The position numbers were made by a program, and so were the translations under genes. A stretch of DNA of 64,000 bases from assembly GCA_035937855.1 (NCBI GenBank), contig DASZHL010000030.1, positions 9,278 through 73,277 of the forward strand, written 5' to 3'. The notes beneath the pieces were generated by a model, which saw only the letters and a list, made by a program, of their open reading frames with translations, searched no databases and had not been told where the DNA came from. This DNA is from Vulcanimicrobiaceae bacterium (GTDB taxonomy: Bacteria; Vulcanimicrobiota; Vulcanimicrobiia; Vulcanimicrobiales; Vulcanimicrobiaceae). Positions 1,913-25,915 of this stretch are shown here, one piece after another (position 1 is the stretch's first letter; each line of letters starts with the position of its first letter).

Positions 1913-2095
1913 TCCCGTGCTTTTCGCCGCCGAGGACCTCTACTTCTTCAGGTCGAGAGTCCCAATCTGTGCCTAAAACGCCGCATCCCGTACGATCTGT
2001 CCGCATGCATTACTGAGAGGTTCGTGGACGGTTTATGAGAACGCGGGCCTTGTGAGAAGTGGTCATCGAGCCGGTTTGAAGCGGGAGAAAAAGAA

Positions 2096-3346
2096 GTGAA
2101 GTGGGACTCGACCTTATTTGGGCGACACCTCGAAAGTTGGTCTGGGATGGCTACGCCCGAGTTCTTTGGGTATTTGGAGTCGAAAACAGCCGCTATTGTC
2201 GATGAGGACCATTTACGGGATTTGCTCGATTCGGGCCGTCACGTTGCGGTGAAGTTCGGCATCGACCCGACAACGAAAGACGTCCATCTTGGGCATATCG
2301 TCCCGGTGATGCTGCTAAGTCAGTTTATAAAAAAGGGACATGCAATCGATTTCGTCATCGGAGACATTACGGCGAAAATCGGCGATCCCAGCGGACGTAC
2401 TTCCGGTAGGGAAGTTTTATCGGAAAGCGAGATCAACAAAAATTTAGAGACCTATGCGACCCAAATATCAAACTTTATCGACGCAAATAAGATAACATTT
2501 TATCGAAATTCAACGTGGCTGGATAAAATCCCGTTAAGAGATTTGCTTTCAGTTTTTCAGAGCGTCAATTTATCTGAAGCGTTTCAGCGTGATGACTTTC
2601 GTGCCAGAGCAGCTGCGAATCAAGGCGTTTCTCTCGCAGAAGTTTGTTATCCTTTGCTCATGGGTCTGGATTCGATTGCATTAAAAAGCGAGATCGAAGT
2701 TGGGGGGATCGATCAACTGCTAAATTTCCATCAGGCTCGAAATCTCATGAAACACAAGGGGCTGCGGCAAGAAGTGATCCTTGTGACGCCCATTATTGAA
2801 GGAACGTCCGGAGACGGCCGGAAAATGAGCAAAAGTTTTGGAAACTACATTGCGGTCAATGATAGTTCTTCCGATATTTTCGGTAAAATAATGTCTATTC
2901 GCGACGAATTGATTGCCCCGTATTTTCAAGCGTTTGGTCACGTTCATATCCGAGAAGTGGACTCCATACGGCATTTTTCGGAAGATTCCCCGATGGAGGC
3001 AAAAAAACAGCTGGCAACGCTGATCGTCGGTATGCGGTATGCTGATTTACAGCGGGGGCTTGAAGAACGGGAATCGTTTGAACAGCGATTCTCTCGTCAC
3101 CAACTCAAAGACGAGTTATTCAGTGACCTCGTCGTGATTGCGAATACCTCGGTATTCGACGCTCTGATGGGATCTGGCCACTATAAATCGCGCGGCGAAT
3201 TGCGAAGACTGTTCGATCAAGATGCCGTCAAAAATTTAGGTGAGGGAGCGAAAACTCCCCTGCGAGGCGACACGTCCGTTTCGGATAATCTGAAAATCGC
3301 GGTCGGAAAGCGGGGGCTCTACAAAGTGCGGATTAAAAACACCTAA
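2096..3346 (+). CDS. tyrS: tyrosine--tRNA ligase (island copy)
   Basis: Class-I HIGH motif (DVHLGHIVP), KMSKS motif (GRKMSKSFGNY), IGDPSGRT and a C-terminal S4-like tail. Starts at GTG with GGGAG upstream; an alternative start is Met at 2147. Codon usage is AT-richer than the flanks. Confidence 0.9.
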   Translation: MKWDSTLFGRHLESWSGMATPEFFGYLESKTAAIVDEDHLRDLLDSGRHVAVKFGIDPTTKDVHLGHIVPVMLLSQFIKKGHAIDFVIGDITAKIGDPSGRTSGREVLSESEINKNLETYATQISNFIDANKITFYRNSTWLDKIPLRDLLSVFQSVNLSEAFQRDDFRARAAANQGVSLAEVCYPLLMGLDSIALKSEIEVGGIDQLLNFHQARNLMKHKGLRQEVILVTPIIEGTSGDGRKMSKSFGNYIAVNDSSSDIFGKIMSIRDELIAPYFQAFGHVHIREVDSIRHFSEDSPMEAKKQLATLIVGMRYADLQRGLEERESFEQRFSRHQLKDELFSDLVVIANTSVFDALMGSGHYKSRGELRRLFDQDAVKNLGEGAKTPLRGDTSVSDNLKIAVGKRGLYKVRIKNT

Positions 3347-3396
3347 GGACGCGGGTATTAAGACAGCATTACGCGTCGGTGAGTTGGTGGAGGTGG

Positions 3397-3792
3397 ATGA
3401 CCATGAAGAAATATCGGAGCGAAGCTATAGAAGCACTGCACGAAGCGATACAAGGCTTGCATCCTTACGATGAAGTAATGCGTGAGGTCGAGGCGTTGAC
3501 GATTCGTGGCAAGGCACGATCCGCTGCGGAGACGGAATACTATCGGATACTTTGTGCGCTTATCGGTGACTACGAACGCTCCGTGGGTGCCGACCACTGG
3601 CCGAAAACCGCCCCCCTCGACGCGCTTCGCGAACTTATGGAATTTCAAGGCGTAACACAATCGGAAATCGCAAACGCCCTCGGCGTTAGAGCCGCCGCGT
3701 CATCTATCCTCAGTGGACGTCGGCAAATTAGTAAGGCCCAAGCAAGAAAACTCGCGATCCTCTTCCGCCTTGATGCCTGCGTTTTCATTTGA
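3397..3792 (+). CDS. XRE-type HTH protein, HigA/COG5499-like antitoxin architecture (orphan)
   Basis: C-terminal HTH region: LRELMEFQGVTQSEIANALGVRAAASSILSGRRQISKAQARKLAILF. GGAGGTGG RBS lies just before the ATGACCATG start region. No toxin ORF is adjacent. Confidence 0.6.
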   Translation: MTMKKYRSEAIEALHEAIQGLHPYDEVMREVEALTIRGKARSAAETEYYRILCALIGDYERSVGADHWPKTAPLDALRELMEFQGVTQSEIANALGVRAAASSILSGRRQISKAQARKLAILFRLDACVFI

Positions 3793-3872
3793 GATGTAAC
3801 GCGGCGTTTACTTTGAGGACCTTTTGACGTAATAGTCTTCGCTACTGGACGTCGCCTGAACGTTTACTCGCT

Positions 3873-4580
3873 TTATTGCTCAAGATGAATGACGAATGGA
3901 TTGAAATTGGTGTCTCTGTCGTAAACATCGATTCTTTCCACACGTTTGAGAGCCGCGACGACTCGATACGTGATGGGGATCATCACGACTTCGACGACGA
4001 CTTTGAGAACCCAACTGGAGAGAACGGATGAGACCAGCAGTCCGTTTGGAATAACGCCGTATAGTGCTATGGAGGCGAAGAGAATGGAATTTGCAAGCTG
4101 ACCCACCAGCGTCGACGTGACCAGGCGAGCCCAGAGATGCTTTCCCTCCGAAAAAACCTTCAGTTTCGCAATCGCATAGTCGTTCAGAAACTCTCCCGTG
4201 AACACCGCGATCCAGCCGCCGAAGAGTATCCTCGGGACCTGATACAAAACACGTTTATACGCTTCGTTCGCATCGAACCCGGGAGCGGCCGGCAGCGTCG
4301 CTGCGATAACATAAAGAACGCCTGCCAACACCGAGCAGAGGAGGACGGTCCAAAGGGCGCTTCGCGCCCGCACATAGCCGTAAACTTCGGTGAGAATGTC
4401 TGAGAAAATATACGTGAACGGAAACCACAATATCGAAACGGGAACGACAAACTCGAAGAGGTTGACCAGCTTTCCGGCCGTGACGTCCGAAATGAGCTGA
4501 AAGGCGACGTACAACGCGGTGATGAACCCGAAAAACGTACGCCGAGTTCCTTTGTCCAGTGCATCAGTGGTCTCAATCAT
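3873..4580 (-). CDS. yhhQ: queuosine-precursor (preQ0/preQ1) transporter, YhhQ/VUT (DUF165) family
   Basis: Multi-TM protein with FPFTYIFSDILTEVYGY...GEFLNDYAIAKLK...LVGQLANSILF, typical of YhhQ. I place the start at Met 4580 (MIETTDAL) rather than at the long-ORF start 4718. Confidence 0.8.
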   Translation of the reverse strand: MIETTDALDKGTRRTFFGFITALYVAFQLISDVTAGKLVNLFEFVVPVSILWFPFTYIFSDILTEVYGYVRARSALWTVLLCSVLAGVLYVIAATLPAAPGFDANEAYKRVLYQVPRILFGGWIAVFTGEFLNDYAIAKLKVFSEGKHLWARLVTSTLVGQLANSILFASIALYGVIPNGLLVSSVLSSWVLKVVVEVVMIPITYRVVAALKRVERIDVYDRDTNFNPFVIHLEQ

Positions 4581-4630
4581 GAGCTCACTGATTTTTGAAG
4601 CCCCCGTAAGGAACCTTCTCGGGGTGCGGC
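4581..4630 (-). promoter_or_regulatory. candidate preQ1-I-like riboswitch in the yhhQ 5' leader
   Basis: The mRNA reads CCCCGAGAAGGUUCCUUACGGGGGCUUCAAAAAUCAGUGAGCUC-AUG. AGAAGGUUC...CUUC plus an A-rich tail resembles AGAGGUUC...CCUCU-AUAAAAAACUA of preQ1-I. Loop CUUAC can pair with GUGAG at the presumed SD. The gene context fits. Not validated by a covariance model. Confidence 0.3.
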
Positions 4631-4779
4631 TATTCTTCGTCGACGGGAAAGGCGGTATTGACAGCCTAATCCAAACCAGACAAGCGTCCTGAAATGGGCA
4701 ACTCCCCAAGATATCCAAACCGCCAAATCATGTCCCTCGAACGCGCGTGCACCGGGATTAGCATAGAATCCGTCGTTTC

Positions 4780-5043
4780 GAGCGCCCACATCAGGGGAAG
4801 CACTGATCACAGAGCGCCGCTTACGGCAAAGGCTTCAACCAGACGGTGCGGCAGTGCCATTAGTCGGCAATGTCGAGCGGTGGGGCTCCCAGGCCCACGA
4901 ACTCACGACATCTTCAAGGAGGAGAGTAACCGCGTCCCAAAACGCGCTGCTCAGATCACCCTAACGAAGCCGGAGAAAAAAGTGTGGGCTAACGAGTTCG
5001 AGTCCGCCTCAGGCAGCTCGCCGTCCCGCCCACGGAAGGTATT
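4780..5043 (+). promoter_or_regulatory. conserved noncoding leader, copy 1 (upstream of DUF3800-like gene)
   Basis: The last ~140 nt are about 90% identical to 13271-13406, with three single-nt indels (so not coding) and one variable ~15-nt block inside a GUGGGC...GCCCAC stem immediately 5' of the GGAAGG RBS. Confidence 0.45.
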
Positions 5044-6483
5044 ATGAACAATTCTACGACGAAAGTCAATTCATTAGAGCGGGAACCAGTTAAAGCAAGC
5101 GACCAGCCATCCCGTGTCCCCGGTGTCGCCCTCTACGTCGGTGAGGCCGGCTGCCCTCACCCTTTTGATGGTAGTGAGTCAACACCGTGCTTCATTGTCG
5201 GAGTGTTGGTGACGCCCGAAGCCGAAGCGTTTCGATCGGAAATAGAAGCGTTTCGCGCCACGCAACATTATCATGGGCCTTATCGCTGGAGCGAGACTAG
5301 CGACCACGCCGCTCGTCAAGCGTATCTAAATTTAGCGGAATATTTGCAAGCGGGAACTTCATCTGCATGGGATTTTCATGCGACGCGCTTTCCATCAAGG
5401 AACGTAAATCGGGAAGATTTTGGACACGACCGGTCTTATGCGTCTAGAAAAACCCTTCAAATAGGAATCGATGAAGCGCTAAAAGCGATGAGCCCTGAGG
5501 TTGGAGGACACCTTCAGATCGTTCTCCCCCGTAAAAGGCGCGACGGCAAAACGGCATATCAGCTTTCAGCTACAATCGAATATTTAGAAAAATACTATTC
5601 TGATCGCTTTCCAATGACGCAGATTGAAATCAAGTGGCGCGAGCCTGGGAGCGATCGAAACCTTGAAATTTGCAATCTTTTCGCTTCATCTCATCATTCA
5701 TATTTTACTCCTGATGAATGCGGATTCCCAAAGTGGAAAACTGCGAAGGCATATGCTGCACTTGGAAAGTGTTCTTATCAAGAATATATAGAACACTTCT
5801 TGCATCCACAAGAAATTCTCGCCGATTCACCGCCGAAAACCCGTGAGGATTTCGTCCAGGCGGCAATTGAAACGCTGCATGCAAAATATGGGGCCACGTC
5901 GAGAGACATCCGCGAAGAGCCGGCTTCTCAGGCTATTAGTGAAAAACCAAAACTTGCGGCAAACGGCAAGCTCGTTGCAATAGAGACGAGCGAGAACGCT
6001 TTCGTCGTGGTGAATCGCTGGGACTATCCACGCGGAACATTTCACCGGGAACTGGTTTCTATCGACCCTCACGAGGCATGTCCGAACGGATACGTCCGGC
6101 AAACTCCATCGAGCAGGGATGTTCTCGTAGAAGATGCTCGCGCGATTCTCGCTGATCGGCTAGGCGTACCAGCGGAAAGAATCATCGAGAAAATACGCCC
6201 ACCGTATGGCACTCTAGAAGGCGAGGTGATCGCGCTGGGAGAAAAACATTTCGCCGTCGTCAGACCATCAGAAAACCGACGCTTTACGATCGTCAAACCG
6301 GAGGTTTTCTCTTTTGAAAAACCGGCTGTGGGCGATTATGTACGGATCAAATTTTCCGGGAAGTTTACCGAAGGAACCCTCGTGCATCGCCCTGTTCTCC
6401 GTCACGAATCACAAGGCCGAAAGGCGGAATCTGTGCGCGATAAAGACGGGCAGGGAGCAAAATCCCTCGCGCATAGAATTTAA
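5044..6483 (+). CDS. DUF3800-like N-terminal domain fused to a conserved beta-rich C-terminal region (paralog 1)
   Basis: 479-aa ORF with a GGAAGG RBS, paralogous to 13407..14918. N-terminal YVGEAG...FIVGVLV...NLEICNLF resembles the DUF3800 DES/QxxD layout but is degenerate. The C-terminal GKLVAIETSENAFVVVNRWDYPRG and GEVIALGEKHFAVV...GDYVRIKF repeats are SH3/KfrB-like (tentative). Confidence 0.6.
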   Translation: MNNSTTKVNSLEREPVKASDQPSRVPGVALYVGEAGCPHPFDGSESTPCFIVGVLVTPEAEAFRSEIEAFRATQHYHGPYRWSETSDHAARQAYLNLAEYLQAGTSSAWDFHATRFPSRNVNREDFGHDRSYASRKTLQIGIDEALKAMSPEVGGHLQIVLPRKRRDGKTAYQLSATIEYLEKYYSDRFPMTQIEIKWREPGSDRNLEICNLFASSHHSYFTPDECGFPKWKTAKAYAALGKCSYQEYIEHFLHPQEILADSPPKTREDFVQAAIETLHAKYGATSRDIREEPASQAISEKPKLAANGKLVAIETSENAFVVVNRWDYPRGTFHRELVSIDPHEACPNGYVRQTPSSRDVLVEDARAILADRLGVPAERIIEKIRPPYGTLEGEVIALGEKHFAVVRPSENRRFTIVKPEVFSFEKPAVGDYVRIKFSGKFTEGTLVHRPVLRHESQGRKAESVRDKDGQGAKSLAHRI

Positions 6484-6532
6484 GTCAAGATAAAAAAGGG
6501 TACCATCTCGCCATAAACAGAAAGCTCCTCCG

Positions 6533-7120
6533 ATGAACGCACGCATCGTTCCGGTCATTTACGGGTCGGTCAGGACCGATCGCCAGGGAATCAAGGCCGC
6601 TCGCTTTGTAGTCAAGGAGCTTGAACGTCGCGGATACCATGCGGTGCTCGTCGATCCGCTCGAACGGCCCCTACCGTTGCTCGATCGGATGTACAAGCAA
6701 TTCGCTGCGGGTAAGGCGCCCAAGGTTCTCAGGGACTTGGCCGAGTTGTTCGTGAGTGCGGATGGTTTCATCGTCGTGTCCGGTGAGTATAACCACGGTA
6801 TACCGCCCGCGCTCAAGAACCTCATGGATCACTTCCTGGAGGAATATTTTTGGCGTCCCGCAGCCATCGTGTCGTATTCGGGCGGCAACTTCGGCGGCGT
6901 ACGCGCGGCCGTACAGTTGCGCTCGGTTCTTGGCGAAATGGGGATGGTCACGATCCCGACCAGCCAACCATTCCCGCACGTTGGCAACGCGTTCACCGAT
7001 GACGGCGAGCCTACCGATCCTAAGACACGAGACCGCATGGTGCCCTTCTTCGATGAATTCGCCTGGTATGTAGACGCGCTCCGCGAACAACGCCGCAAAG
7101 GCGTCCCGGACGGTGCCTAG
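6533..7120 (+). CDS. NAD(P)H-dependent FMN reductase family oxidoreductase
   Basis: IPVIYGSVRTDRQG...DGFIVVSGEYNHGIPPALKNLMDHF...AAIVSYSGGNFGG is a typical FMN_red/flavodoxin-like fold. Confidence 0.85.
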   Translation: MNARIVPVIYGSVRTDRQGIKAARFVVKELERRGYHAVLVDPLERPLPLLDRMYKQFAAGKAPKVLRDLAELFVSADGFIVVSGEYNHGIPPALKNLMDHFLEEYFWRPAAIVSYSGGNFGGVRAAVQLRSVLGEMGMVTIPTSQPFPHVGNAFTDDGEPTDPKTRDRMVPFFDEFAWYVDALREQRRKGVPDGA

Positions 7121-7147
7121 CAGATCCCGAGGGGTGCAAATTTATTT

Positions 7148-7732
7148 ATGAGTGATGCAAAATCTGATCGACAGTGGATGAGCGGCGCGGCACACGAAAA
7201 TATCGTTACGGTCGGCAATCCAATGCTCAGGCAGTACGCCACTGTTATAGGCGATATTGGCGCCGGTAAACGTTTGGCGGACCGAATGGCATTACTATTG
7301 CGGGAATTAAAAGGCGCCGGACTTGCGGCTCCGCAGATCGGTTTTTCCGAGCGAGTGATCGTTGTTGAAGTGAGAAAGACGGACGTGTTTCCAGATCGTC
7401 AGGAGTCCCCTTTGTACGCGATGATCAATCCGTCAATCACAGAAGCTTCAGAAGAGGTGGAGGAGGGATGGGAAGGTTGCTTTAGTGTGCCGGGTTTGAT
7501 GGGGCAAGTGTCGCGTCACAAGTCGATCACCGTACGTTATGTCAGCCTGGATGGTTTCGAGCATCGTGAGATCTTCAATGGTTACGTCGCTCGAGTGATC
7601 CAGCACGAATGTGACCACTTGATCGGCGCGATATTTCTGGATCGTATGAAATCGATGCAAAGTATCACGACCGTCGCAAACTACATGTGCTCTATTTCAG
7701 AGTCATGTAAAATGGGACATAACCTACTTTAA
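7148..7732 (+). CDS. def: peptide deformylase (island copy)
   Basis: All three PDF motifs are present: GAGLAAPQIG, EGCFSVPG, QHECDHLIG. Confidence 0.9.
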   Translation: MSDAKSDRQWMSGAAHENIVTVGNPMLRQYATVIGDIGAGKRLADRMALLLRELKGAGLAAPQIGFSERVIVVEVRKTDVFPDRQESPLYAMINPSITEASEEVEEGWEGCFSVPGLMGQVSRHKSITVRYVSLDGFEHREIFNGYVARVIQHECDHLIGAIFLDRMKSMQSITTVANYMCSISESCKMGHNLL

Positions 7733-7839
7733 CCGGCCGCCGAGGTCGCAGGAAGATCAGTACATTTAGACAATAATCTATCGGAAAGGGCGCTTTTTCC
7801 ACAAAGGAAGCGAACGGCAATTACTCGAACATCACCGAC

Positions 7840-9177
7840 GTGGACACAATCGTCGTTCAAAACCCTTCTGGACACTTCGACATTAGCGGATCAGTCGCCC
7901 TTCAAGGATCGAAAAATGCGGGGTTGATCAATATTGCATTGCCGCTACTGACGTCAGATGAGTGCGTGTTTACTAATATTCCCGCCATTGCCGATGTCGA
8001 GCAGGCACTTTCCTTCCTCAGATGCATTGGGGCTGATGTTCGATGGGACGGGCAGCTTCTCTATATCACCTGCGACAATATCGTCCCTCGAATGATGGAT
8101 CCTCAACACGCGATGGAGACAACTCACTCGAGTGTTTTTATCCCACTATTAGTTTCCCGCTTCGGAGAATTCGTAACAGGAGCACCAGGTGGATGTCCGA
8201 TCGGTGATCGCGCTTTTGGACAATACGTAAAGACCCTTTCCAAAATGGGCGTCGCTTGCGAGCCTGCGAAATCTGGAACCCTTCGCTTTTTTTCCACGGA
8301 GGAATTCACTAACGATATCACGCTGCCATTTCCAAGCTACAGTTCAACTATAAGTGCAGTCTTGCTTGCAATGACGCATGGCTCTATGGTTATTCATAAC
8401 CCGTCCGAAGAACCGGAAATCGACAACGTATTGCAGGTACTGACATCCATGGGCGCTCATGCACAGCGAGCCGGTTCACGGATAGAAGTGGCTCCTCCCG
8501 ATAAGTTCAATGGGGGACGATTTCGCAACATGAGTGATCGCAATGTCGCCGTGACATACGCAGTTATGGCACTCATAACTGGAAGCGAGCTTTCGATCAC
8601 AAATTTTGATGATGATAAAATGGACGCATTCTATCAATTCCTCGAGATTGTGGGCATTGCATATCATCGCCAAAACCAAGTGTTCAAGATCCCCTCCCAA
8701 GACGTTACACGTTTACGCGCTACCCAGGTTGATGCATACATTTACCCCTCGTTCCATAGCGACTGGCAACCCTTAGTTGCTCCGCTGCTGTGCTTATTCA
8801 ATGGAACTAGTCGCATTGAGGAGCGGCTTTTCCCGAATCGCTTGGGATACTGGGAACAATTAGCTCTCATGGGGGCGAAATACTCAGAAACAGTTACGCA
8901 AAAATCTCGTTTCCAAGATAATTTTGTGCACGCAGTTGAGATTTCAGGGCCTTGTGCTTTCCATGGGGCGAACGTTAAGGCACTAGATCTGCGCGGCGCC
9001 GCTGCGCTCTTAGAAGCGGCCCTGATCGCTCGTGGAACAACATGCATCCATAATGCCGAGATCCTTCAACGCGGTTACGCAAATATTATCGATGACCTAC
9101 AGAGCCTTTCGGTCACCATTGAAAAGGAAATAAGTCCACAGTTTGAGACAGTTCCTAAACGGTCTTGGAAAACTTAA
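7840..9177 (+). CDS. MurA-family enolpyruvyl transferase, highly diverged second copy
   Basis: 445 aa. N-terminal ISGSVALQGSKNAGL (compare GAKNAALP), a Cys loop APGGCPIGDRAF (compare PGGC.LG.R) and LDLRGAAALLEAALIARGTT (compare DIRAGAALVVAGL). Only weakly similar to the canonical murA at 52830. Confidence 0.75.
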   Translation: MDTIVVQNPSGHFDISGSVALQGSKNAGLINIALPLLTSDECVFTNIPAIADVEQALSFLRCIGADVRWDGQLLYITCDNIVPRMMDPQHAMETTHSSVFIPLLVSRFGEFVTGAPGGCPIGDRAFGQYVKTLSKMGVACEPAKSGTLRFFSTEEFTNDITLPFPSYSSTISAVLLAMTHGSMVIHNPSEEPEIDNVLQVLTSMGAHAQRAGSRIEVAPPDKFNGGRFRNMSDRNVAVTYAVMALITGSELSITNFDDDKMDAFYQFLEIVGIAYHRQNQVFKIPSQDVTRLRATQVDAYIYPSFHSDWQPLVAPLLCLFNGTSRIEERLFPNRLGYWEQLALMGAKYSETVTQKSRFQDNFVHAVEISGPCAFHGANVKALDLRGAAALLEAALIARGTTCIHNAEILQRGYANIIDDLQSLSVTIEKEISPQFETVPKRSWKT

Positions 9178-9208
9178 TCATGATTGCGTAAGGCCGTCTA
9201 ATTTCCAC

Positions 9209-10678
9209 TCATGCAATAGCAAAAACATCCGTTTCTCCAGAGCGGATCAGATAGGCACGAAGACGATCGCGGAATTCTTCGATTTCCGGCATACTGGGGT
9301 AATGGTCTTGAACTTCGCGATGGAATTGAACGAGACGGTCGACGATCCGCGAGGATCGAATCCCGCAAGCGAAGTTCATCACCGAATGACCAAGATTGAC
9401 GGCCTCGCCAGGCTCGCCTTGAAGCAGTCGGACATTCATCAAACGGATGGTATCTAAGGCTCTACCCCTGAAATAAGGGACTTTTCGTCCTTCAAGGGTG
9501 ACGAGAACATGCTGTTCTGCTTGCGCCGTATAACCTGACGCGGAATCGCGTGACCCATCACGCCGAGCCATGTTCAAGTATGTCGTCGCGATCCAACGGT
9601 GAATCGCCGCTAAGTTCAAGCTATTGAATACCGGCAGCATTGGATCATTTGTAGCATTTCTACTCGCATCCATACTTGCCTCAATGGCGCGATGAGCATC
9701 CAATGAGTTCCCTACCCGCGCCTGCGTAGCCGCAAAAACGCCAAAAAGCTCAGCCTGTACGAGCCCCTGCCGACGTGTAGGTAAACAGCTAATGGCAAAG
9801 GAAAGAAATTTCAATGCATCCTGATGTTTTCCCATCGCAATGGCGATGCACGACATATCACCGATAACTTTGGCGGCAATCAGGTGATTTCCAGCTTCTC
9901 GGCAAAAATGAAGTGCCAAGGAATAATAGCGTTGCGCCAATCCATATAATCGACAATCATATGACATTAAGCCTGCTTGCTGAGCCATTTGTGCGGCTAC
10001 TTCAAATAGCCGCGTTTTAATGGCTCCTGGAGGCGTTTCTTCAAGAAGCTCTCCAACCGCTCGCACTTGCCCAATCACTGCTTTCCGCATGTGCGTGCCA
10101 TTTTGAGAACCCCACTTAGAGAATTCCATAATTTTTTCTTCGAGATCAGCCACCTCAGTGAGGCCAACCTGATGAGGTTGAGATTGTCCCGTCATAATCG
10201 TGGTTGCTGGAGAAATGGTTCCTACTAACTGCATGATTGGTCTCAGCAGAAGGGAGCCGGAAATCGCGGTCATCGTAGCTAGGGCATCCCGTCGGCTGGC
10301 GATGTCGCTCGCGGTTACACTTTGTAAAGTCACTATTGCCTCTGAAGTGGTTAATTGGGAGATGTCTCTGGCATTCAAGCATTGAGTTCGTACTGCAGGC
10401 TCTCCAGAAATTGCCTGGCGAGAGTTGACATAGGCCCCATCGGCTTTCGGTGCCTTAAACCCGAGGTCTTCCTCTGTTGCCTGGTAAAAACGGCAGAGGA
10501 GGCGACGATAGTGCCTACGGGGTCTCTTTTTACCGCGTTCCCACTTTGAGATCACGGACGCGTCCACCTTGACCTCCAAGCCATCGGCTGCGGCGAGTCG
10601 GACCAATTCTTCAGCAACCTCCTCTTGAGTGATGCCGCGCCTAAGGCGGAAATCTTGAAGGCGATCAGTGCCACTCAT
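9209..10678 (-). CDS. XRE-family HTH regulator with long TPR-like helical C-terminal domain
   Basis: N-terminal LRRGITQEEVAEEL...VISKWERGKKRP HTH. About 400 aa of helical repeats follow (YYSLALHFCREAGN, IGDMSCIAIAMGKHQDALKF). I prefer the ATG at 10678 over the TTG at 10702. Confidence 0.7.
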   Translation of the reverse strand: MSGTDRLQDFRLRRGITQEEVAEELVRLAAADGLEVKVDASVISKWERGKKRPRRHYRRLLCRFYQATEEDLGFKAPKADGAYVNSRQAISGEPAVRTQCLNARDISQLTTSEAIVTLQSVTASDIASRRDALATMTAISGSLLLRPIMQLVGTISPATTIMTGQSQPHQVGLTEVADLEEKIMEFSKWGSQNGTHMRKAVIGQVRAVGELLEETPPGAIKTRLFEVAAQMAQQAGLMSYDCRLYGLAQRYYSLALHFCREAGNHLIAAKVIGDMSCIAIAMGKHQDALKFLSFAISCLPTRRQGLVQAELFGVFAATQARVGNSLDAHRAIEASMDASRNATNDPMLPVFNSLNLAAIHRWIATTYLNMARRDGSRDSASGYTAQAEQHVLVTLEGRKVPYFRGRALDTIRLMNVRLLQGEPGEAVNLGHSVMNFACGIRSSRIVDRLVQFHREVQDHYPSMPEIEEFRDRLRAYLIRSGETDVFAIA

Positions 10679-10886
10679 CTCTCTTTTTCTTCGCTCCAAC
10701 AACTCCAGGGTGATCTTCTCTGGACGGGAATGATCCTTAACCGATTGAAGGGGTATCCTTTAAACGAGAGGTCGCGATCAAATGTGCTCAATTGGACCAA
10801 TGAGACCATAAATTGAACCATATGATCGTTGCGACGATGCTGACCGTTATGCTTTTTTATGGGATGGTACTATATTGGAGGTGAAC

Positions 10887-11120
10887 ATGGAAGACCTACC
10901 GTCCATCAGTAATCCAACCGTGTGTGTACCCCATGAACTGGGGCTCATACCCATCACCCCACACGACAACGCGAGTGGACCCGGGTGCCTTCGGTGCCAC
11001 GGTTTACTGTCGTCCGACGGAATGTGTTGCAACCTTGAGTGTGTGATTCTTGCGATGAGCGACTCCGAGTACGCAGGCTATCTCGACGAGATTTTCGCGC
11101 CCTACGGGCGCCGCTCATAG
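10887..11120 (+). CDS. small Cys-rich hypothetical protein (77 aa)
   Basis: ATG preceded by TGGAGGTGA RBS. Six Cys, including CLRCHG...CCNLEC, suggest a zinc-ribbon-like protein. Divergent from the XRE-TPR regulator. Confidence 0.45.
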   Translation: MEDLPSISNPTVCVPHELGLIPITPHDNASGPGCLRCHGLLSSDGMCCNLECVILAMSDSEYAGYLDEIFAPYGRRS

Positions 11121-11283
11121 GAAAGTCGGAGTCTCTCGAGACGCGGTGGTTTTTCATGGGTGCCCTATTACGACGTCTGGATTGAATAGACTTGCTGCTC
11201 AATCCGTAGGGATTAGCGAACCCCCAAGAGCTCGAGGGCTCCAGACAATTCCCGGGCCAACCCGCAACCACTTGCATCAGATT

Positions 11284-12552
11284 TCATTCGTGATCATAAT
11301 TTTGTGCCGTGTATAGGAGAAACGTATCAGCCGCACCAAGTGCATCTCGGTCTTTGAGTGCATTGAGGCCAGAAACGGTTAGGCCGGTTGAAAGAGCGAA
11401 GCCACTTCCGGCAAGAATCGGTTCGTGTGTAACCAGGCCTACAATTCCAAGAGTGGCCCCAAGCGCTGCACCGGAGAAATCACGGAACAATGTAGCGAAA
11501 TTCCGATTTAGGTGTGTTCGTAGTCCCTCTAGTGAAGGCGAAATAACATCTTCGTAGATCTCTCTACTGATTTTCTCACATTGAGGATCCTCGATGGTTT
11601 TAACGCGTTCGTGAATCGCCTTACGCAATGTGCTTTGATAAAGCTTAAATGAGTCCTCAAAATCTTCGCGTAATTCATATAACTTCTTGAGCGGAACCTC
11701 GTCGATGAATGGTAACTCTATATTGAATGCAACTTGGTTCGTAAGATTCCCCTCGGGGGATGCTGCGTAACGCAAAAGGAAGCTTTCAGTTGGATCCAAT
11801 GAAGCGATGGTTGCATCTGTTTTTTTTGCGAGATATAGATTGGTTGACGTGGTACATAAACCTTGGTCAACAACTATCCGGGTTAACTCTTGGTGAATTC
11901 CTCGGGGATTTTTAGTCTTGATCCAGTTATCTTTCATGAGAAATCCTTCGTATATCTTAAACTTCTCACTCTCAAATTCGAGATATCGATGAGTTTTCCC
12001 ACTTCGTTTCCCGTTACGAATTTTACTCTCCTTAAGGAGAGTTTCGGTAAGACGATCACTAGGGAGAGCATTATTAGAGGATGGAAAATCCAGGTCGGTC
12101 GCCGCATGAGCGCAATCGCCACTGCAAAAAATAGATTTTGAGGAAAGCTTCAAGAGATTCTCGGCGTCAGCATTCTTAGCGATAAGCAGGGCATCAAGCC
12201 AACCGCCAAGTTTCCCTAAGTCTGCTTTGTCGTGCGGATAGAGAACGATTTCATGCGTAAGGTCGGATACTATGACTGAGTCAAAATAATGCCATGTGCG
12301 ACGAAGTAAAAACTCAGCTTCGCCTGCGATACAGGATCGTTCTGCACAAGAACTACCAGAAAAATCAAGGCCCGATCCTGCAAGTACTGTTGGATTATTA
12401 GTTATCGGTTCGATCGTCATTTCTCTAGCTTGTTGTGCAGCTTGACGAAATCTACTATAGAGAATAGGACTTCCTAAAAAACGATCAATATCAATGCTTT
12501 TATGAATACGGTTTTGTTCAAACCAATCGAAAACCCAAAACCTCTGTTCCAC
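11284..12552 (-). CDS. hypothetical protein, very AT-rich orphan with Gly/Ala/Ser/Thr-rich C-terminal segment
   Basis: 422-aa uninterrupted ORF starting at GTG with a GGAGGG RBS. I recognise no motif. The C-terminus SGAALGATLGIVGLVTHEPILAGSGFALSTGLTVSGLNAL is glycine-zipper-like. Confidence 0.7.
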   Translation of the reverse strand: MEQRFWVFDWFEQNRIHKSIDIDRFLGSPILYSRFRQAAQQAREMTIEPITNNPTVLAGSGLDFSGSSCAERSCIAGEAEFLLRRTWHYFDSVIVSDLTHEIVLYPHDKADLGKLGGWLDALLIAKNADAENLLKLSSKSIFCSGDCAHAATDLDFPSSNNALPSDRLTETLLKESKIRNGKRSGKTHRYLEFESEKFKIYEGFLMKDNWIKTKNPRGIHQELTRIVVDQGLCTTSTNLYLAKKTDATIASLDPTESFLLRYAASPEGNLTNQVAFNIELPFIDEVPLKKLYELREDFEDSFKLYQSTLRKAIHERVKTIEDPQCEKISREIYEDVISPSLEGLRTHLNRNFATLFRDFSGAALGATLGIVGLVTHEPILAGSGFALSTGLTVSGLNALKDRDALGAADTFLLYTAQNYDHE

Positions 12553-12601
12553 GTTATGCCCTCCACGAATCAGCGCTATTAAGAGAGTGCATGTTATCCA
12601 C

Positions 12602-12829
12602 CTAACCTACAGCTTCGAGTGAAACCAAACGTGAGAGTGGCACCCGTAGCGTCCCCTTAACCCAGCCATGCTGCGGACGATATGGGGTCACCTCGAGCAC
12701 CACGAGATCAGGTTTAACCGACCATACGAGCCCAACGCCACCTGGGGGGAAATCGAGATCGAGTTGTCCCGCGTCGGTCTTGAAAGTTACCTGACGGCCG
12801 GAAAATTTTTTCGCTTCGTCGAATTTCAT
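12602..12829 (-). CDS. small hypothetical protein (75 aa), upstream partner of the 422-aa orphan
   Basis: ATG with an AGAGG RBS. Lies 49 nt upstream of, and co-oriented with, 11284..12552. No recognisable motif. Confidence 0.45.
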   Translation of the reverse strand: MKFDEAKKFSGRQVTFKTDAGQLDLDFPPGGVGLVWSVKPDLVVLEVTPYRPQHGWVKGTLRVPLSRLVSLEAVG

Positions 12830-13154
12830 CAGTAACCTCTTCTAACGAAGAAAGGCCAGCCGCCACAAGCGCCTTGTGCTCATCACGGACTGGTTAGACT
12901 ATGGTCAAAAGCACGCAATCGCCCTCGGACGAACCGAGGTGTCAAGGCCAACGATAGCAATTTTCGTGTTAATGTGCAAGTTTTTTAGGACGGCACGATT
13001 CTAGCCTATCGCTAGTGAAAATTTCGCGCACGGACTCCATCCGCGAAGCTATCAAGCTCAAGTGGACGGAAACTTCCGTGCGATCACATGGACGACGCCT
13101 ACCTCGCATTGAAGGGTTGCATTCTCGGCTACGAAAAACGGGCACAGCCCATGA

Positions 13155-13406
13155 AGCTGCCGGCGCACATCGACCCAACCGATGCTCGCGGCAAAGGCTT
13201 CATCCCGACAGCACCGCAGCGCCATTGGTAGGCAACGCCGAGTGGCGGAGCACCGGCTAAGAAGTCGCCATTTCTTCAAGGGGGAGAGCAACCGCATCCC
13301 AAAACGCGCTGCTTCAGAATCACCCTAAACGAAGCCGGAGAAACAAAGTGTGGGCTAACGAGTCCGAGCCACCGAACAGCGGGTCGCCGTCCCACCCACG
13401 AAAGGT
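13155..13406 (+). promoter_or_regulatory. conserved noncoding leader, copy 2
   Basis: See copy 1. The core tcttcaagg.ggagag.aaccgc.tcccaaaacgcgctgc...cgaagccggagaaa.aaagtgtgggctaacgagt.cgag is shared, and the indels are not multiples of three. Confidence 0.45.
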
Positions 13407-14918
13407 ATGATGGAGAATTTTCAGGCGGAAGTCAATCCCTCCTCAGCGCAGGATGAGCTTGTTCGCCTCGAAGCGAGTAAGCAAGGATCTCTCGCTCGCG
13501 GCTTATCGCTATATGTTGATGAAGGTGGCTCCTCTCATCCATTCAATGGAAGTGAACGCAAACCATACTTCATCATCGGAGTCTTGGTGACGCCGGAACA
13601 CGAGGCTTTTCGATCGGAAATAGAAGCGTTTTGCGCTACGCAGCGTTATCAGGGACCGTATCATTGGATCGAGCAATCCAAGTCTGAACTAGGGCAACAA
13701 CAAACAGAAGCGTACCGAAACCTTGCCGAATACATAAGAGCGGGAACTTCATCTGCATGGGATTTCCACGCGAGGCTCTTTCCAGCGATAAATGTAAACG
13801 AGGAAGACTTCGGTCATAGCCAGCATTATGCATACAAAAAACTCCTTCAAATTGGGATCGACGAAGCGTTAGACGCGACGAGCTTCAAGGTCGGCAAACG
13901 CCTCGAAATCATTCTTTCCGGCAAGAGTCGTGACAGCACGAAAGCCAATGGTGATTCAAAATTAAAGGACACTAAAAGATACTTAGAAGAACATTATTCC
14001 ACGCAGTTCCCCGAAGCCGAGATTGAAGTCCGATGGGTCCCGCAAGAGACGGATCGTAACTTACAAATCTGCGATATGTTCACTTCAACGTATCATACAT
14101 ATATAACGCCTGACCACTGCAAAAATACTCAAAAGTGGGATCTTGCAAAGGTCTATAGTTCGCTTATAAAATGCGATTACCAAGAATACATGGACCACAC
14201 CTTGCACCCTCAGGAAGTTCTCTCAGATGCACCGCCAAGAAACCGTGAAGATATCATTAAGGCGGCAATCAAAAAACTACATGCAAAATATGGAACTCTC
14301 TCGGAAGGCGTCCGTGAGGAAATCGCTTCTCATGCTATCGACAAAAAACCAAAACTCGCGGAAAACGGCAAGCTCGTCGCGATAGAGACGAGCGAGAACG
14401 CTTTCGTCGTAGTGAATCGCTGGGACTATCCCCGCGGAACATTTCTCAGAGAACTGGTTTCCATCGATCCTCAGAAGGCACGTCCACACGAACATCTCCA
14501 GCAAATTCCATCGAACAGGGATATCGTCGTACAAGACGCTCGCGCGGTTCTCGCCGATCGGCTGGGTATACCGCCGGAGAAAATCATCGAGAAAGCCCGC
14601 CCTCCGCGCGGCACTCTTGAAGGCGAAGTGATCGCGCTGGGAGAGAAGCATTTCGCCGTCGTCAGTTCATTCGAAAACGGACGGTTTACGATCGTCCAGT
14701 CCGACGTTTTCTCTTTTGAAAAACCGGCAGTAGGGGACCAAATTCGGATCAAATTTGTCGGGAGGTCTACCGAAGGAACCGTCGTGCATCGGCCTGGTCT
14801 CCGTCATGAATCGCAAGACCGAAAGATGCAATATATACGCGATAGAGACGGGCAAAGAGCTAAATCGCTAGCGCAGAGAAACCAAGTCAAGATAAAGAAG
14901 GGTACGATTTCACTATGA
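13407..14918 (+). CDS. DUF3800-like N-terminal domain + conserved C-terminal region (paralog 2)
   Basis: 503 aa. YVDEGG and NLQICDMF keep DE(S)-like and QxxD-like motifs. The C-terminal half is nearly identical to paralog 1 (KPKLAENGKLVAIETSENAFVVVNRWDYPRGTF). Confidence 0.6.
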   Translation: MMENFQAEVNPSSAQDELVRLEASKQGSLARGLSLYVDEGGSSHPFNGSERKPYFIIGVLVTPEHEAFRSEIEAFCATQRYQGPYHWIEQSKSELGQQQTEAYRNLAEYIRAGTSSAWDFHARLFPAINVNEEDFGHSQHYAYKKLLQIGIDEALDATSFKVGKRLEIILSGKSRDSTKANGDSKLKDTKRYLEEHYSTQFPEAEIEVRWVPQETDRNLQICDMFTSTYHTYITPDHCKNTQKWDLAKVYSSLIKCDYQEYMDHTLHPQEVLSDAPPRNREDIIKAAIKKLHAKYGTLSEGVREEIASHAIDKKPKLAENGKLVAIETSENAFVVVNRWDYPRGTFLRELVSIDPQKARPHEHLQQIPSNRDIVVQDARAVLADRLGIPPEKIIEKARPPRGTLEGEVIALGEKHFAVVSSFENGRFTIVQSDVFSFEKPAVGDQIRIKFVGRSTEGTVVHRPGLRHESQDRKMQYIRDRDGQRAKSLAQRNQVKIKKGTISL

Positions 14919-14934
14919 ACAGTAGGCTCAGCCG

Positions 14935-15520
14935 ATGAACACACGCATCGTCCCCGTCATTTACGGGTCGGTCCGGACCGATCGCCAGGGAATCAAGGCC
15001 GCTCATTTCGTGGTTAAGGAGCTTGAACGTCCAGGATACCATGCGGTTCTCGTCGATCCGCTCGAACGTCGCATTCCGCTTCTCGATCGGAGTATAAGCA
15101 ATTTGCCGAGGGTGAGGCGCCCAAGGTTCTCAGGGACTTGGCCGAGATGTTCGTGAGCGCGGACGGTTTCATCGTCGTTTTTGGTGAGTATAACCACGGT
15201 ATACCGCCCGCGCTTAAGAACCTCATGGATCATTTCATGGAGGAATATTTTTGGCGTCCCGCGGCCATCGTGTCCTATTCGGGCGGCAGCTTCGGCGGCG
15301 TACGCGCGGCCGCGCAGTTGCGCTCGGTTCTCGGCGAAATGGGAATGGTCACGATCCCGACCAGCCAACCATTCCCGCACGTTGGCAACGCGTTCACCGA
15401 CGACGGCGAGCCGACCGATCCTAAGACACGAGAACGCTAGGTACCCTTTTCTATGAATTCACTTGGTTTGTAGATGCGCTCCGCGAACAACGCTGTAAAG
15501 GCATTCCGGACGGATGCTAG
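14935..15520 (+). pseudogene. FMN reductase pseudogene (copy of 6533..7120)
   Basis: About 90% nt identity to 6533..7120. It has a 1-nt deletion near 15091 (cggatgtacaag vs cgga-gtataag), an in-frame TAG at 15436-15438 (cgcatggtg vs cgctaggta) and a further 1-nt deletion. The ORF track splits it into 14935..15156 and 15138..15440. Confidence 0.85.
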
Positions 15521-15619
15521 AGTAAATCCAGATTTGATTTAGAATGGATTGGATAAAAAAAGGGGAATACTTGTGGCAACTCCTAACGCGATTATCCTAT
15601 GATCGCAGCGCAAGCCTCA

Positions 15620-15648
15620 TTGACTATGCTCGATTTCTTCTGTATAAT
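15620..15648 (+). promoter_or_regulatory. near-consensus sigma70-type promoter upstream of the APH-family gene
   Basis: TTGACT, a 17-nt spacer, then TATAAT, about 93 nt upstream of the ATG at 15741. Confidence 0.45.
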
Positions 15649-15740
15649 CGTTCTACCCAGGTCGCACAGATTGTATCCCGCCGCAATAGCCTTATCTGTA
15701 TTGACCAGTAGCATCATGTTGAGGAGCAGCGCCTACAGAT

Positions 15741-16730
15741 ATGAAGAATTCCATTTTGCCAGATGAAGTAATCGCCCTCGCCGGGAAATTTTGCGCTGAG
15801 CAGCCCCACCTGATTGCCACAGGGACGGAGGCGGACGTTTATTCGCTCGATGATGCGCGAGTGTTGAAAGTCTATCGAGCAGAGGGAGCTCTGAAGCACG
15901 TCCAGGCGCTACAGGATTTTTATAATCGTGCCAGTGTGGAGAATGTTGGCTTTGCTATACCAAGTATCAATGAATGCGGCAGCTACGAGGAGATGGTATA
16001 CTCCGTCGATCAGCGCTTGGTTGGCGTTCCATTATCGGATATTCCCCATGCGTTTGAAGATTCGCAGTTGACGGAGCAATACATCGATACGGTTTTGGCC
16101 ATCCAGAAAATCACCGTATTTCCACCGTATGCTCGCAGGAAGCTTCTGGATCCGAGCGGTCGACCCGAAGACTGGAATAGCTTCATCCGAGAGGAAGCCA
16201 TCAAGAAGCATCGTAAACTCATCAAGAAGCATCGTAAACTCAGCAATGAACTCCCGGCTAAAGTTGTCGAAATCCTTGGCCCTATTACGGTTCTGGCTGA
16301 CTTCTTTGATTCTCCGTACAAAGGTGAAGATCGTTTAGTTCATGGCGATTATCATCCGGGTAATGTGTTGATACTCGATGGCCGTGTCAGCGCCGTTGTC
16401 GACTTTGGCACCTTTACATTGTTCGGTGATCCTCTATACGATGCGGCGACTGCCTGCGGCTTTTTCAGTATGTATGAGACTGATCAAATACGGACTAGGA
16501 AAGCTGCCTTGGATTTACTATTCGATAAAATTGGAGATGCAAACGAATCCAAGGTGTCTGCTTATCTTTTGGTCGCTGCGCTGACGACGTGCGACCTCTA
16601 TCCAGATAAATCGCTCCCAATCTATGAGACTGGACATTTTCAGTGGGCGCAGTCAGTGCTTGCGGACAAGCAAACCTGGGAAGCTGTGGCCCGCCCGCGT
16701 CAAGATAAGTTGGTACCAAAGTTTGGATAA
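15741..16730 (+). CDS. aminoglycoside/choline-kinase-type phosphotransferase (APH family)
   Basis: Catalytic loop LVHGDYHPGNVLI and DFG-like VVDFGTF. Confidence 0.8.
   Translation: MKNSILPDEVIALAGKFCAEQPHLIATGTEADVYSLDDARVLKVYRAEGALKHVQALQDFYNRASVENVGFAIPSINECGSYEEMVYSVDQRLVGVPLSDIPHAFEDSQLTEQYIDTVLAIQKITVFPPYARRKLLDPSGRPEDWNSFIREEAIKKHRKLIKKHRKLSNELPAKVVEILGPITVLADFFDSPYKGEDRLVHGDYHPGNVLILDGRVSAVVDFGTFTLFGDPLYDAATACGFFSMYETDQIRTRKAALDLLFDKIGDANESKVSAYLLVAALTTCDLYPDKSLPIYETGHFQWAQSVLADKQTWEAVARPRQDKLVPKFG
16200..16241 (+). repeat. perfect 21-bp tandem duplication inside the APH-family gene
   Basis: atcaagaagcatcgtaaactc occurs twice, giving an in-frame IKKHRKL IKKHRKL. Confidence 0.95.
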
Positions 16731-16800
16731 GATACGCGATCCTGAATTCATGAAAATAAAGAGACGGAAGAAATATACTTTCAGGTTTCTCGCCTATTGA

Positions 16801-16968
16801 GAATTCCTGGTCCAAATGAAGGTCGCTTTGCGGGCGACGGTTGCGAGAATGACGCAAGCCCTCGATGCTGCGTTAACCAGCGCCCTTGCCGGTATGACAT
16901 CGAACGATATCTGGGGCTGGATTCATCACTGTGCATATGATCCTAAATCAAACCCCGATGTACTCTAA
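16801..16968 (+). mobile_element. 3' remnant of an IS630/Tc1-mariner-type transposase gene
   Basis: The frame reads EFLVQMKVALRATVARMTQALDAALTSALAGMTSNDIWGWIHHCAYDPKSNPDVL*. The pattern ...LK..LR......AL..A....L..IT..D..GWF.HCGY is the usual C-terminus of IS630-family transposases as I remember it. No upstream transposase body is present. Confidence 0.45.
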
Positions 16969-16971
16969 CCG

Positions 16972-18600
16972 TCAATTCTCCCATTCCCATGAATTCCAAT
17001 TATTCGTGACGTAGGTTGCCGGACGATAGTTTCGCAAGTCGCGGTTGTATGCGGCGGTGCCGACTTCCCAATAGAGCGGGATCATCGGCACAAGCGCGTG
17101 CGCGCGTGCCTCTTCGCGTTGATAGAGTTTCGCGCGAGTCGCGTGATCGAAACTGCGGACGGCGGCGTTGGCGAGGACGGTGAGTTCGCGATCACGGAGA
17201 AAACTCGTGTTTCCTCCGTAAGGGGGCACCGCCGTCGCGCTGAGAGTGTCGCGATTATCGGGGTCGGGTGCGTTCGTATCGATCGAGGTTTCGAGATCGT
17301 AGTGACCACCAAGAAGCGGACCGTTTTCGGAAAAGAGTACGCTTGCCGGATAATTCTTGATTGTTAAAACGATGCCGATCGTTCGAAGATCCTGTTGTAT
17401 CTGCACTTCCGAGCGAACGTTGGGCGCCAACGGTGTCGCGGAGATCGTCAGATGAAGAGGGACACCGTCACGAACGCGAATGCCGTCGCGTCCGACTCGG
17501 AAGCCCGCCGCATCGAGAAGACGACGCGCTTGCGCCGGATCATAGGCATACGGCGGAATTTTCGGCGCGGCCCAAGAACTTGGAACGATATCGCTGACGG
17601 CCGGAACATTGCGTTCGTGATACACCGTCTGCAACAGACGATGCCAATTGACGCCTTGCGCGAGCGCCCGACGGATGCGTACATCGTCGAGTGGTGGATG
17701 CGCCGTGTTGATCGTGATGCGCCGTCGATTTGCCAGCAATCGGCGTGCAACGGTGATTCCCGGAAGCGCGGAGGCGCGGTCAATCTGATCTTCCGAAACA
17801 TTGGGATCGACGTCGATTTCATGCGCGCTCAAGGCTGCGAACATCGTCTGATCGTCGGGAATCACTTTCCACAGGATTTCACGGGCTTTGGGTGGGCCAC
17901 GCCAATATCGCGGATTGGGAACGAAGCTCAGCGAGGCGCCGCGCTGCCATGAACGCAATACCCACGGACCGCTCGACAACGGTTGCTCATTGAACGCCGC
18001 GTGATCCAAACTCGGCAGTTTTTTCAAAAGGTGTGCGGGCAACGGTGGATATGCCGAACCGCCATTCGCGAACAAACCCAGCACCGTGACGTCGGGACGT
18101 TTGAGGGTGACGACGACGGTTGCGGGGTCGCGCAGGCGCATCGACGCGATCTCGTCCCAACCCGAACGCGTCTTTACGCTGTTCGCGGGATTCATCACCG
18201 CGGAATACGTGAACAGCAGATCGCGTCCGGTCAGTGGTACTCCGTCAGACCAGAGAACATTGCGCCGCAGATGCAGCACGATGCGGGTTCCGTCGGGCGA
18301 GATGCCGCCGTTCGCACGGGTCGGTACCTCGCTCGCTAATTCGGGAATGAAATTCCCATCGGGATCGTACCGGAAAAGCGGTGCGAACAGCAGCGCGTCG
18401 ATATCGTCGGTCGCCGCGCTATTACCCAAGAGCGGGTTGATATTATCGGGTTCGGCCGGGACGCCGATCCGCACGGTGCCGGGAAGTGTCCATGCGTTGT
18501 GTTCGCCAGGCGAGTTACTCGGTATAACCCGTGTGCAAGCGCCGAGTGCGATCGCGAGCATGATGCCGACGAGTGTGCCGAATGCGTTCGATGTCCTCAT
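16972..18600 (-). CDS. ABC transporter substrate-binding lipoprotein, peptide/nickel family 5
   Basis: I set the start at Met 18600 (MRTSNAFGTLVGIMLAIALGAC lipobox), which overlaps the upstream stop as ATGA. Family-5 SBP body (NPLLGNSAATDD, WSDG.PLT..D). Confidence 0.85.
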   Translation of the reverse strand: MRTSNAFGTLVGIMLAIALGACTRVIPSNSPGEHNAWTLPGTVRIGVPAEPDNINPLLGNSAATDDIDALLFAPLFRYDPDGNFIPELASEVPTRANGGISPDGTRIVLHLRRNVLWSDGVPLTGRDLLFTYSAVMNPANSVKTRSGWDEIASMRLRDPATVVVTLKRPDVTVLGLFANGGSAYPPLPAHLLKKLPSLDHAAFNEQPLSSGPWVLRSWQRGASLSFVPNPRYWRGPPKAREILWKVIPDDQTMFAALSAHEIDVDPNVSEDQIDRASALPGITVARRLLANRRRITINTAHPPLDDVRIRRALAQGVNWHRLLQTVYHERNVPAVSDIVPSSWAAPKIPPYAYDPAQARRLLDAAGFRVGRDGIRVRDGVPLHLTISATPLAPNVRSEVQIQQDLRTIGIVLTIKNYPASVLFSENGPLLGGHYDLETSIDTNAPDPDNRDTLSATAVPPYGGNTSFLRDRELTVLANAAVRSFDHATRAKLYQREEARAHALVPMIPLYWEVGTAAYNRDLRNYRPATYVTNNWNSWEWEN

Positions 18601-25804: not shown

Positions 25805-25915
25805 CATCCGCCGCCGTGGAAAGGAATTTTTACTCAAAGCCTGAAATTTAAACCCCCCTTCAACGAGTCGGATCGCATTGCTCGGCTCGCTTATCTCTTC
25901 GATTCGGGAGTGTCT

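Follow-up and report, generated by a model that had tools for sequence, protein, structure and literature searches.

Mosaic divergence and loss of different components in two copies of a DUF3800-like/FMN reductase module from a Candidatus Baltobacteraceae genome

How do two related copies of one gene module come to stand about 6 kb apart on a bacterial chromosome, and are they still the same unit? The question is raised by a 64,000-nt stretch of contig DASZHL010000030.1 (GenBank assembly GCA_035937855.1; hereafter the window), which is part of a metagenome-assembled genome (MAG) of the soil bacterium Candidatus Baltobacteraceae (Eremiobacterota). Each copy consists of a leader, a gene for a protein with a DUF3800-like N-terminal domain (N-domain) and a C-terminal domain (C-domain), and a gene for an NAD(P)H-dependent flavin mononucleotide (FMN) reductase. 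Here we report that the silent-site divergence of the two copies changes abruptly at a single position, that copy 1 has lost the signature residues of DUF3800 and that copy 2 has a disrupted reductase gene. We consider it probable that the head of an operon was duplicated in this lineage, was then partially homogenised, and decayed in a complementary manner.

Two direct copies of a three-part module

Open reading frame (ORF) listing, repeat finding, global alignment and blastn delimited a single co-linear direct repeat (Table 1). The copies measure 2304 and 2339 nt, are 78.0% identical excluding gaps (blastn: 2351-2354 aligned nt, 78.3%, E < 1e-20) and enclose an interval of 6061 nt (7121-13181). 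The initial annotation of the window had recognised the same three parts twice in the same orientation, and alignment and blastn bear this out; the two peptides that it quoted as identical in both copies are indeed so. Relative to the limits that it gave (4780-7130 and 13155-15520), homology begins about 35 nt further inside on the left, some 225 nt before the first ATG, and on the right it ends exactly at the reductase stop codons. The distance from the stop codon of the DUF3800-like gene to the reductase is 49 nt in copy 1 and 16 nt in copy 2, in which the stop codon falls later.

That the genome is a MAG raises the possibility of an assembly or binning artefact in which alleles of different strains were collapsed into one contig; an assembly artefact had already been named with the first description of the repeat. 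JGI contigs of 53 kb and 7.6 kb (two samples) and a Logan contig of 4.3 kb match the window at 100% identity across both repeat/unique junctions. Because three independent assemblies from other samples give identical sequence, the arrangement is genuine and no assembly artefact; the copies, moreover, show 22% difference, and the sequences adjoining them are different on all four sides; a collapse of alleles is hardly credible. Such a collapse could also appeal to Logan contig L003 (SRR12659399), a short-k assembly that shows path switching: it has six differences from the window in copy 1, at 6746-6781, every one of them the copy-2 base. The switched stretch is flanked by two 32-bp runs common to both copies, and the contig terminates at the second of them. 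We take this assembly to have been built at k=31 and rejected L003 as a true recombinant, boundaries at 32-bp identical runs most likely marking a path switch in the de Bruijn graph.

Silent-site divergence along the module

Conservation along the module had been described as mosaic, and at silent sites it is so, with one breakpoint. Nucleotide identity is 79.0% in the leader, below the figure of about 90% first given for it (88% in its core, 4899-5000), 66.7% in the 5′ part of the DUF3800-like gene, 82.8% in its 3′ part, 79.6% in the intergenic segment and 90.3% in the reductase. Synonymous divergence (dS) is saturated in the 5′ part of the DUF3800-like gene, at 0.83 to >2, and amounts to 0.34-0.52 in its 3′ part and to 0.30 in the reductase; the Jukes–Cantor (JC) distance is 0.24 in both the leader and the intergenic segment, and differences at 4-fold sites are 0.49, 0.29 and 0.17. 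Identity between the two DUF3800-like proteins is about 55% over alignment columns 1-300 and about 76% over columns 301-450. A max-chi-square scan of third codon positions placed the change at window position 5943, where the share of differing positions falls from 46.8% on its left to 21.7% on its right (max-chi-square 47.7, 0 of 2000 permutations), and found no further significant breakpoint on either side. At silent sites the N-domain segment, of about 900 bp, has accumulated roughly three times the divergence seen in the leader and in the 3′ 1.2 kb. Uniform divergence across the module, as a simple old duplication would leave, was not found: both per-segment identity and dS are heterogeneous.

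The initial annotation had offered gene conversion or strong constraint as causes. The step at silent sites indicates recombination or gene conversion, and constraint alone does not suffice. GC content at third codon positions (GC3) is equal on the two sides of the breakpoint in copy 1 (0.435 on the left, 0.428 on the right), and in copy 2 the gene that is conserved best is a pseudogene (see below); neither constraint nor codon bias can therefore account for the step. A single old duplication of uniform age, made mosaic by constraint and codon bias without recombination, would be in keeping with the finding that the most similar parts are a conserved C-domain and a conserved enzyme, and the high GC3 of the reductase could depress its dS. 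It is nevertheless improbable, since the step falls at silent positions inside one ORF and the non-coding intergenic spacer and leader (JC 0.24) also belong to the ‘young’ class. The N-domain segment and the remaining module thus appear to differ in coalescence depth, and two histories fit: the flanks may have been homogenised by gene conversion, or one N-domain segment may have been replaced by a diverged allele.

The genes tufA/tufB of Salmonella are a familiar example of dispersed bacterial paralogues that undergo ectopic gene conversion. There as here, direct paralogues on one chromosome share a tract of far lower silent divergence; in contrast to that case, homogenisation in the window would be partial and old (dS 0.3-0.5, not ~0), and one of the putatively converted genes is now a pseudogene. 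Diversification of the N-domain had also been suggested, which as diversifying selection finds no support. The ratio of nonsynonymous to synonymous divergence (dN/dS) is 0.16-0.58 throughout the module, 0.16-0.39 in the N-domain and 0.16 in the reductase, and because it is this low everywhere we see no diversifying selection on the N-domain; both fusion ORFs are under purifying selection. The change in the N-domain consists in copy 1 having lost the signature residues of the family.

Decay of different genes in the two copies

The two modules, taken at first as the same unit, are not equivalent. In copy 1 the reductase gene is intact. Its counterpart in copy 2 has a 1-nt deletion between 15091 and 15092, an ATG-to-TAG change at 15438-15440 and a further 1-nt deletion near 15448; JGI contig L001 carries all three lesions, and Logan contig L004, which ends at 15144, covers the first only. 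Judged by these lesions, the second reductase is a pseudogene. When amino-acid differences were polarised with seven Eremiobacterota orthologues, copy 2 proved to have nine derived residues and copy 1 two, and nucleotide differences between the reductases are biased from GC to AT (30:16). The derived excess and this bias fit relaxed constraint on copy 2. The closest relatives of reductase 1 (65-72% identical) are found in Eremiobacterota MAGs, in other conserved neighbourhoods, and its GC3 of 0.71 is host-like, that of the DUF3800-like gene being 0.43; in composition the module is chimeric. In existing annotations, NCBI gives a 134-aa fragment of the broken gene as an ‘NADPH-dependent FMN reductase’ coding sequence (HEV3156532.1), and the JGI gene calls on it are fragments of 73 and 97 aa.

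The DUF3800-like gene shows the opposite asymmetry. Copy 2 exceeds the Pfam gathering threshold for DUF3800 (PF12686; 23.4 vs 21 bits, E = 1e-4, residues 35-229), whereas copy 1 matched no Pfam family when the limit was relaxed to E ≤ 10, its homology showing only through copy 2 and in profile searches. A word-indexed search of 5.8 billion clusters returned the two paralogues only. A HMMER search of 1.84 billion representatives added five proteins of 136-240 aa, which match only the N-terminal ~250 residues, and a profile search raised the number to about 20 standalone DUF3800 proteins, 195-263 aa long and in part from Eremiobacterota, with 24-31% identity to the same region. Invariant in 20 of 20 standalone relatives are DE, the Asp of DxKxR, the Asp of EDNF and both the Gln and the Asp of QxxD; DE and QxxD are the published signature motifs of DUF3800 (PMC7736814). 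Copy 2 retains DE (YVDEGG) and QxxD (QICD), as in the standalone subfamily, and has Ser in place of the DxKxR Asp and Lys in place of the EDNF Asp. Copy 1 lacks all four subfamily-invariant aspartates, with Gly in DE (DE to GE; YVGEAG), Pro in DxKxR, Ser in EDNF and both Gln-to-Glu and Asp-to-Asn changes in QxxD (QxxD to ExxN; EICN). We predict that the DUF3800 domain of copy 1 is non-catalytic.

An AlphaFold2 model of the copy 2 N-domain, built from a 21-sequence alignment, reached a predicted local distance difference test score (pLDDT) of 84.7 and a predicted template modelling score (pTM) of 0.81. When it was compared with the PDB by Foldseek, the top nine matches were RNase H2A structures (3puf and 3kio first; E = 6e-5, TM ~0.41), followed by RNase H1, PIWI and reverse transcriptase (RT) RNase H domains. 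The model thus gives the N-domain an RNase H2-like fold, in agreement with the literature on DUF3800 (PMC7736814, PMC10910872). The full-length AlphaFold2 model of copy 1 (pLDDT 38.8) was too poor to interpret.

The C-terminal ~230 residues are the best-conserved part of the protein between the paralogues and most probably the part needed in both copies. They have no detectable homologue among 1.84 billion representative proteins and match nothing in Pfam (E ≤ 10), PHROGs, PADLOC, NCBIfam, PDB sequences or, by tblastn, plasmids and phages; a metagenome protein scan with the two-sequence alignment gave no relative, and no internal repeat was detected between the two beta-rich halves of the domain. 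By these searches, the fusion of DUF3800 to this C-domain is confined to the two paralogues and so far to one population. With standalone DUF3800 proteins (PF12686), including the type VII-A2 retron accessory and the Cas12a2-associated TPR-DUF3800, the window copies share the N-terminal ~250 residues and the predicted fold. They differ from them in the C-terminal extension, and from the standalone subfamily in that both lack the DxKxR and EDNF aspartates and copy 1 also lacks DE and QxxD.

DUF3800 has been associated with the RNAs of retrons and of Cas12a2 (PMC7736814, PMC10910872). The window copies, unlike those proteins, have neither an RT, Cas12 or TPR fusion nor a known RNA motif, and a search for a type VII retron found no RT among the ORFs of ≥150 aa in 1-24 kb, all of which belong to other families or have no Pfam match. 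As for the standalone relatives, at six loci they adjoin tRNA genes, IS1595 transposases, an integrase, a helicase/MZB/PLD (DISARM-like) set or a DUF5343 gene, and two genomes carry them immediately downstream of maf-mreBCD-PBP2.

Leader, neighbourhood and origin of the module

We read the leader as the promoter and 5′ untranslated region of an operon. A different role is suggested by the company that DUF3800 genes keep: they sit beside 11 unrelated candidate RNAs, on either strand (Weinberg et al. 2017, PMC5737381), in addition to the retron and Cas12a2 RNAs. The leader could accordingly be a structured non-coding RNA, of a new class beside the 11 motifs, that partners the DUF3800-like protein, each module being a protein–RNA system. 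Such a partner would account for the conservation of the leader, whose core is 88% identical beside coding sequence that differs at about 50% of its silent sites, would be compatible with duplication of the module and would suit the absence of a conserved upstream ORF or leader peptide in any frame. The likeness to DUF3800-I to DUF3800-XI is that a conserved non-coding segment adjoins a DUF3800-type gene; in contrast to those motifs, the leader is without Rfam, thermodynamic or covariation support and has two instances in one genome. Rfam gave no match in the window at the gathering threshold and nothing relevant in either leader at E ≤ 10, and none of the covariance models for DUF3800-I to -XI matched beside either DUF3800-like gene. 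Folding of both strands, over the full length and the core, was no better than that of shuffled sequences (minimum free energy z-scores -1.15 to +1.53; for leader 1, -1.15 to +0.39), and RNAalifold found compensatory changes in 3 of 47 predicted pairs, from two sequences. The divergence of the leader equals that of the unconstrained ‘young’ segments. Within the window, motif searches (exact and with 3 mismatches) recovered the two copies and no others, an nhmmer profile of the leader matched nothing upstream of standalone DUF3800 relatives or in ~90 fetched loci, and scanning metagenome and viral contigs with 19-mers did not find it beyond the two copies. On balance an RNA partner seems unlikely. 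A bolder variant, to which we give little credence, is that the two fusions form a paired system of a partly motif-intact and a dead RNase H2-like paralogue, joined or targeted by the shared C-domain and acting on an RNA or DNA element encoded in the leader; if true, it would be a new DUF3800–nucleic-acid system, with a twelfth partner class, in Eremiobacterota.

Within each leader core the heptamer CTAACGA occurs twice, at 4961/4989 and 13325/13355 (CTAAACGA at 13325), with a spacing of 28-30 nt; the pair could be a regulator binding site or operator. Antisense sigma70-like -35 and -10 hexamers lie over the start codons of the DUF3800-like genes and point into the leader (TTGACT-17-CATAAT, 5069-5041, minus strand; TTGACT-17-CATCAT, 13435-13407, minus strand). 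A terminator-like minus-strand hairpin stands just past leader 2, at 13152-13138, and no equivalent was seen for copy 1.

The interval between the copies had been described as a cargo segment. The direct repeats might then be the arms of a mobile or recombination-prone cassette, akin to a composite transposon, that moves, deletes or amplifies these 6 kb. Their direct orientation would allow this, as would the few stretches of 30-56 bp over which the reductase genes are identical (the longest identical run between the copies is 56 bp, at 6944-6999, and four more measure 30-32 bp); standalone DUF3800 relatives often lie in mobile contexts (IS1595, integrase, tRNA genes), and contig L003 switches to copy-2 bases. 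That switch, however, has the signature of a graph path at k=31, as set out above. No transposase, integrase, recombinase or RT was found in 1-24 kb and no terminal inverted repeats at the module ends, and 78% identity is far below that of active insertion sequence pairs. All assemblies have the same arrangement, and those assemblies and the databases queried yielded neither hybrid proteins nor hybrid junctions. Exchange of the RecA type could occur, but ~90% local identity should make it inefficient. Deletion or amplification of the interval, to which the initial annotation had thought it prone, is likewise possible but not favoured, and a cassette of this kind is very unlikely.

The composition of the region speaks in the same sense. 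A low-GC stretch (~2000-17000; 0.47-0.55 vs 0.59-0.64 in the flanks) extends past both repeats, which argues against the interval as a discrete cargo. Besides the genes between the repeats (Table 1), it holds tyrS and genes for a HigA-like helix-turn-helix protein, a queuosine-precursor transporter and an APH-like kinase. Its genes look like spare copies of antibiotic targets, a second copy being shown for murA only: a bona fide murA at 52830-54206 passes the murA equivalog cutoff (498.7 vs 392.7 bits), and the murA-like gene of the island falls below it (275 bits) and is 29% identical to the bona fide murA, with the PGGC cysteine loop kept. For the 422-aa protein, 5.8 billion clusters yielded one distant homologue only, with 28% identity. 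Further away, three Sel1-repeat proteins follow in a row at 25910-33132, one of them with 1154 aa and 24 Sel1 repeats (29668-33132, minus strand).

Table 1 Features of the duplicated module and of the interval between its copies (window positions)
Feature	Position	Strand	Basis or remark
Repeat copy 1: leader, DUF3800-like gene 1, intact FMN reductase	4817-7120	+	Global alignment, blastn
Leader 1, non-coding	4817-5043	+	79% identical to leader 2; core 4899-5000, 88%
DUF3800-like gene 1, 479 aa, HEV3156523.1	5044-6483	+	No Pfam match; motif loss by alignment
Silent-site divergence breakpoint	5943 (homologous to ~14346 in copy 2)	+	Max-chi-square on third codon positions
NAD(P)H-dependent FMN reductase 1, intact, 195 aa	6533-7120	+	PF03358, E = 1.1e-31
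def	7148-7732	+	ORF listing and family search
Divergent murA-like gene	7840-9177	+	Family search
NsdA-family XRE-TPR regulator	9209-10702	-	Family search
Cys-rich small ORF	10875-11120	+	ORF listing
422-aa gene	11284-12552	-	No family match in Pfam, NCBIfam, PADLOC, PHROGs
75-aa gene	12602-12829	-	No family match in Pfam, PADLOC, PHROGs
Repeat copy 2: leader, DUF3800-like gene 2, reductase pseudogene	13182-15520	+	Global alignment, blastn
Leader 2, non-coding	13182-13406	+	Alignment with leader 1
DUF3800-like gene 2, 503 aa, HEV3156531.1 (starts one codon later)	13407-14918	+	Pfam DUF3800 (PF12686)
FMN reductase pseudogene (copy 2)	14935-15520	+	Two 1-nt deletions and in-frame TAG

Leader, DUF3800-like gene and FMN reductase had been put forward as a triplet that might be conserved in other genomes, and this was not the case. 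Among 80 loci with relatives of the reductase, none has a DUF3800-like gene, the leader or a murA-like gene nearby, and the eight contexts of standalone DUF3800 relatives contain no reductase; the module would therefore have been assembled and duplicated in this lineage. In the account that we favour as the probable one, the ancestral unit was the head of an operon, comprising a promoter and 5′ leader, a gene fusing DUF3800 (RNase H2-like) to a lineage-specific C-domain and a gene for an NAD(P)H:FMN reductase. This operon head would have been duplicated inside the low-GC accessory region of the chromosome, after which ectopic gene conversion would have re-homogenised the flanks, or a diverged allele would have replaced one N-domain segment. 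Complementary decay would then have taken the DUF3800 signature carboxylates from copy 1 and the reductase from copy 2. Copy 1 keeps a reductase that would still work and is probably co-transcribed with def and the murA-like gene.

Several points weigh against this account. With two sequences and no C-domain outgroup, conversion is neither polarised nor dated, and the similarity of the leaders could reflect constraint instead of conversion. Two of the four invariant aspartates are missing from copy 2 as well, and to call copy 2 active and copy 1 dead may oversimplify; loss of catalysis is itself a prediction. A relative-rate test of copy 1 against copy 2 was not significant (20:13, p = 0.30), which leaves accelerated evolution of the copy 1 N-domain, a candidate that we rejected, unsupported.

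Operon-head duplication followed by loss of different parts recalls the duplication-degeneration-complementation (subfunctionalisation) of duplicated gene pairs that Force and colleagues reportedly proposed in 1999, in that each unit has lost a different component: copy 1 its DUF3800 signature residues, copy 2 its reductase. It differs in that the components are separate genes of an operon, not regulatory sub-functions, and in that their functional complementarity is putative.

The locus provides an evolutionary case with clear numbers, in which a dispersed operon duplication, a discrete breakpoint that points to recombination and the complementary decay of two genes can be followed on one chromosome, although the process is an ordinary one. 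It also corrects the annotation, one ‘FMN reductase’ being, by its lesions, a pseudogene fragment and one ‘hypothetical protein’ a motif-dead DUF3800 paralogue. The function of the DUF3800 family is unknown despite its links to retrons, Cas12a2 and 11 RNA motifs, and the fusion alone does not make that question testable. The sole unusual biology of the locus lies in the protein, in which a predicted RNase H2-like DUF3800 domain is joined to a well-conserved C-domain that has no detectable homologue.

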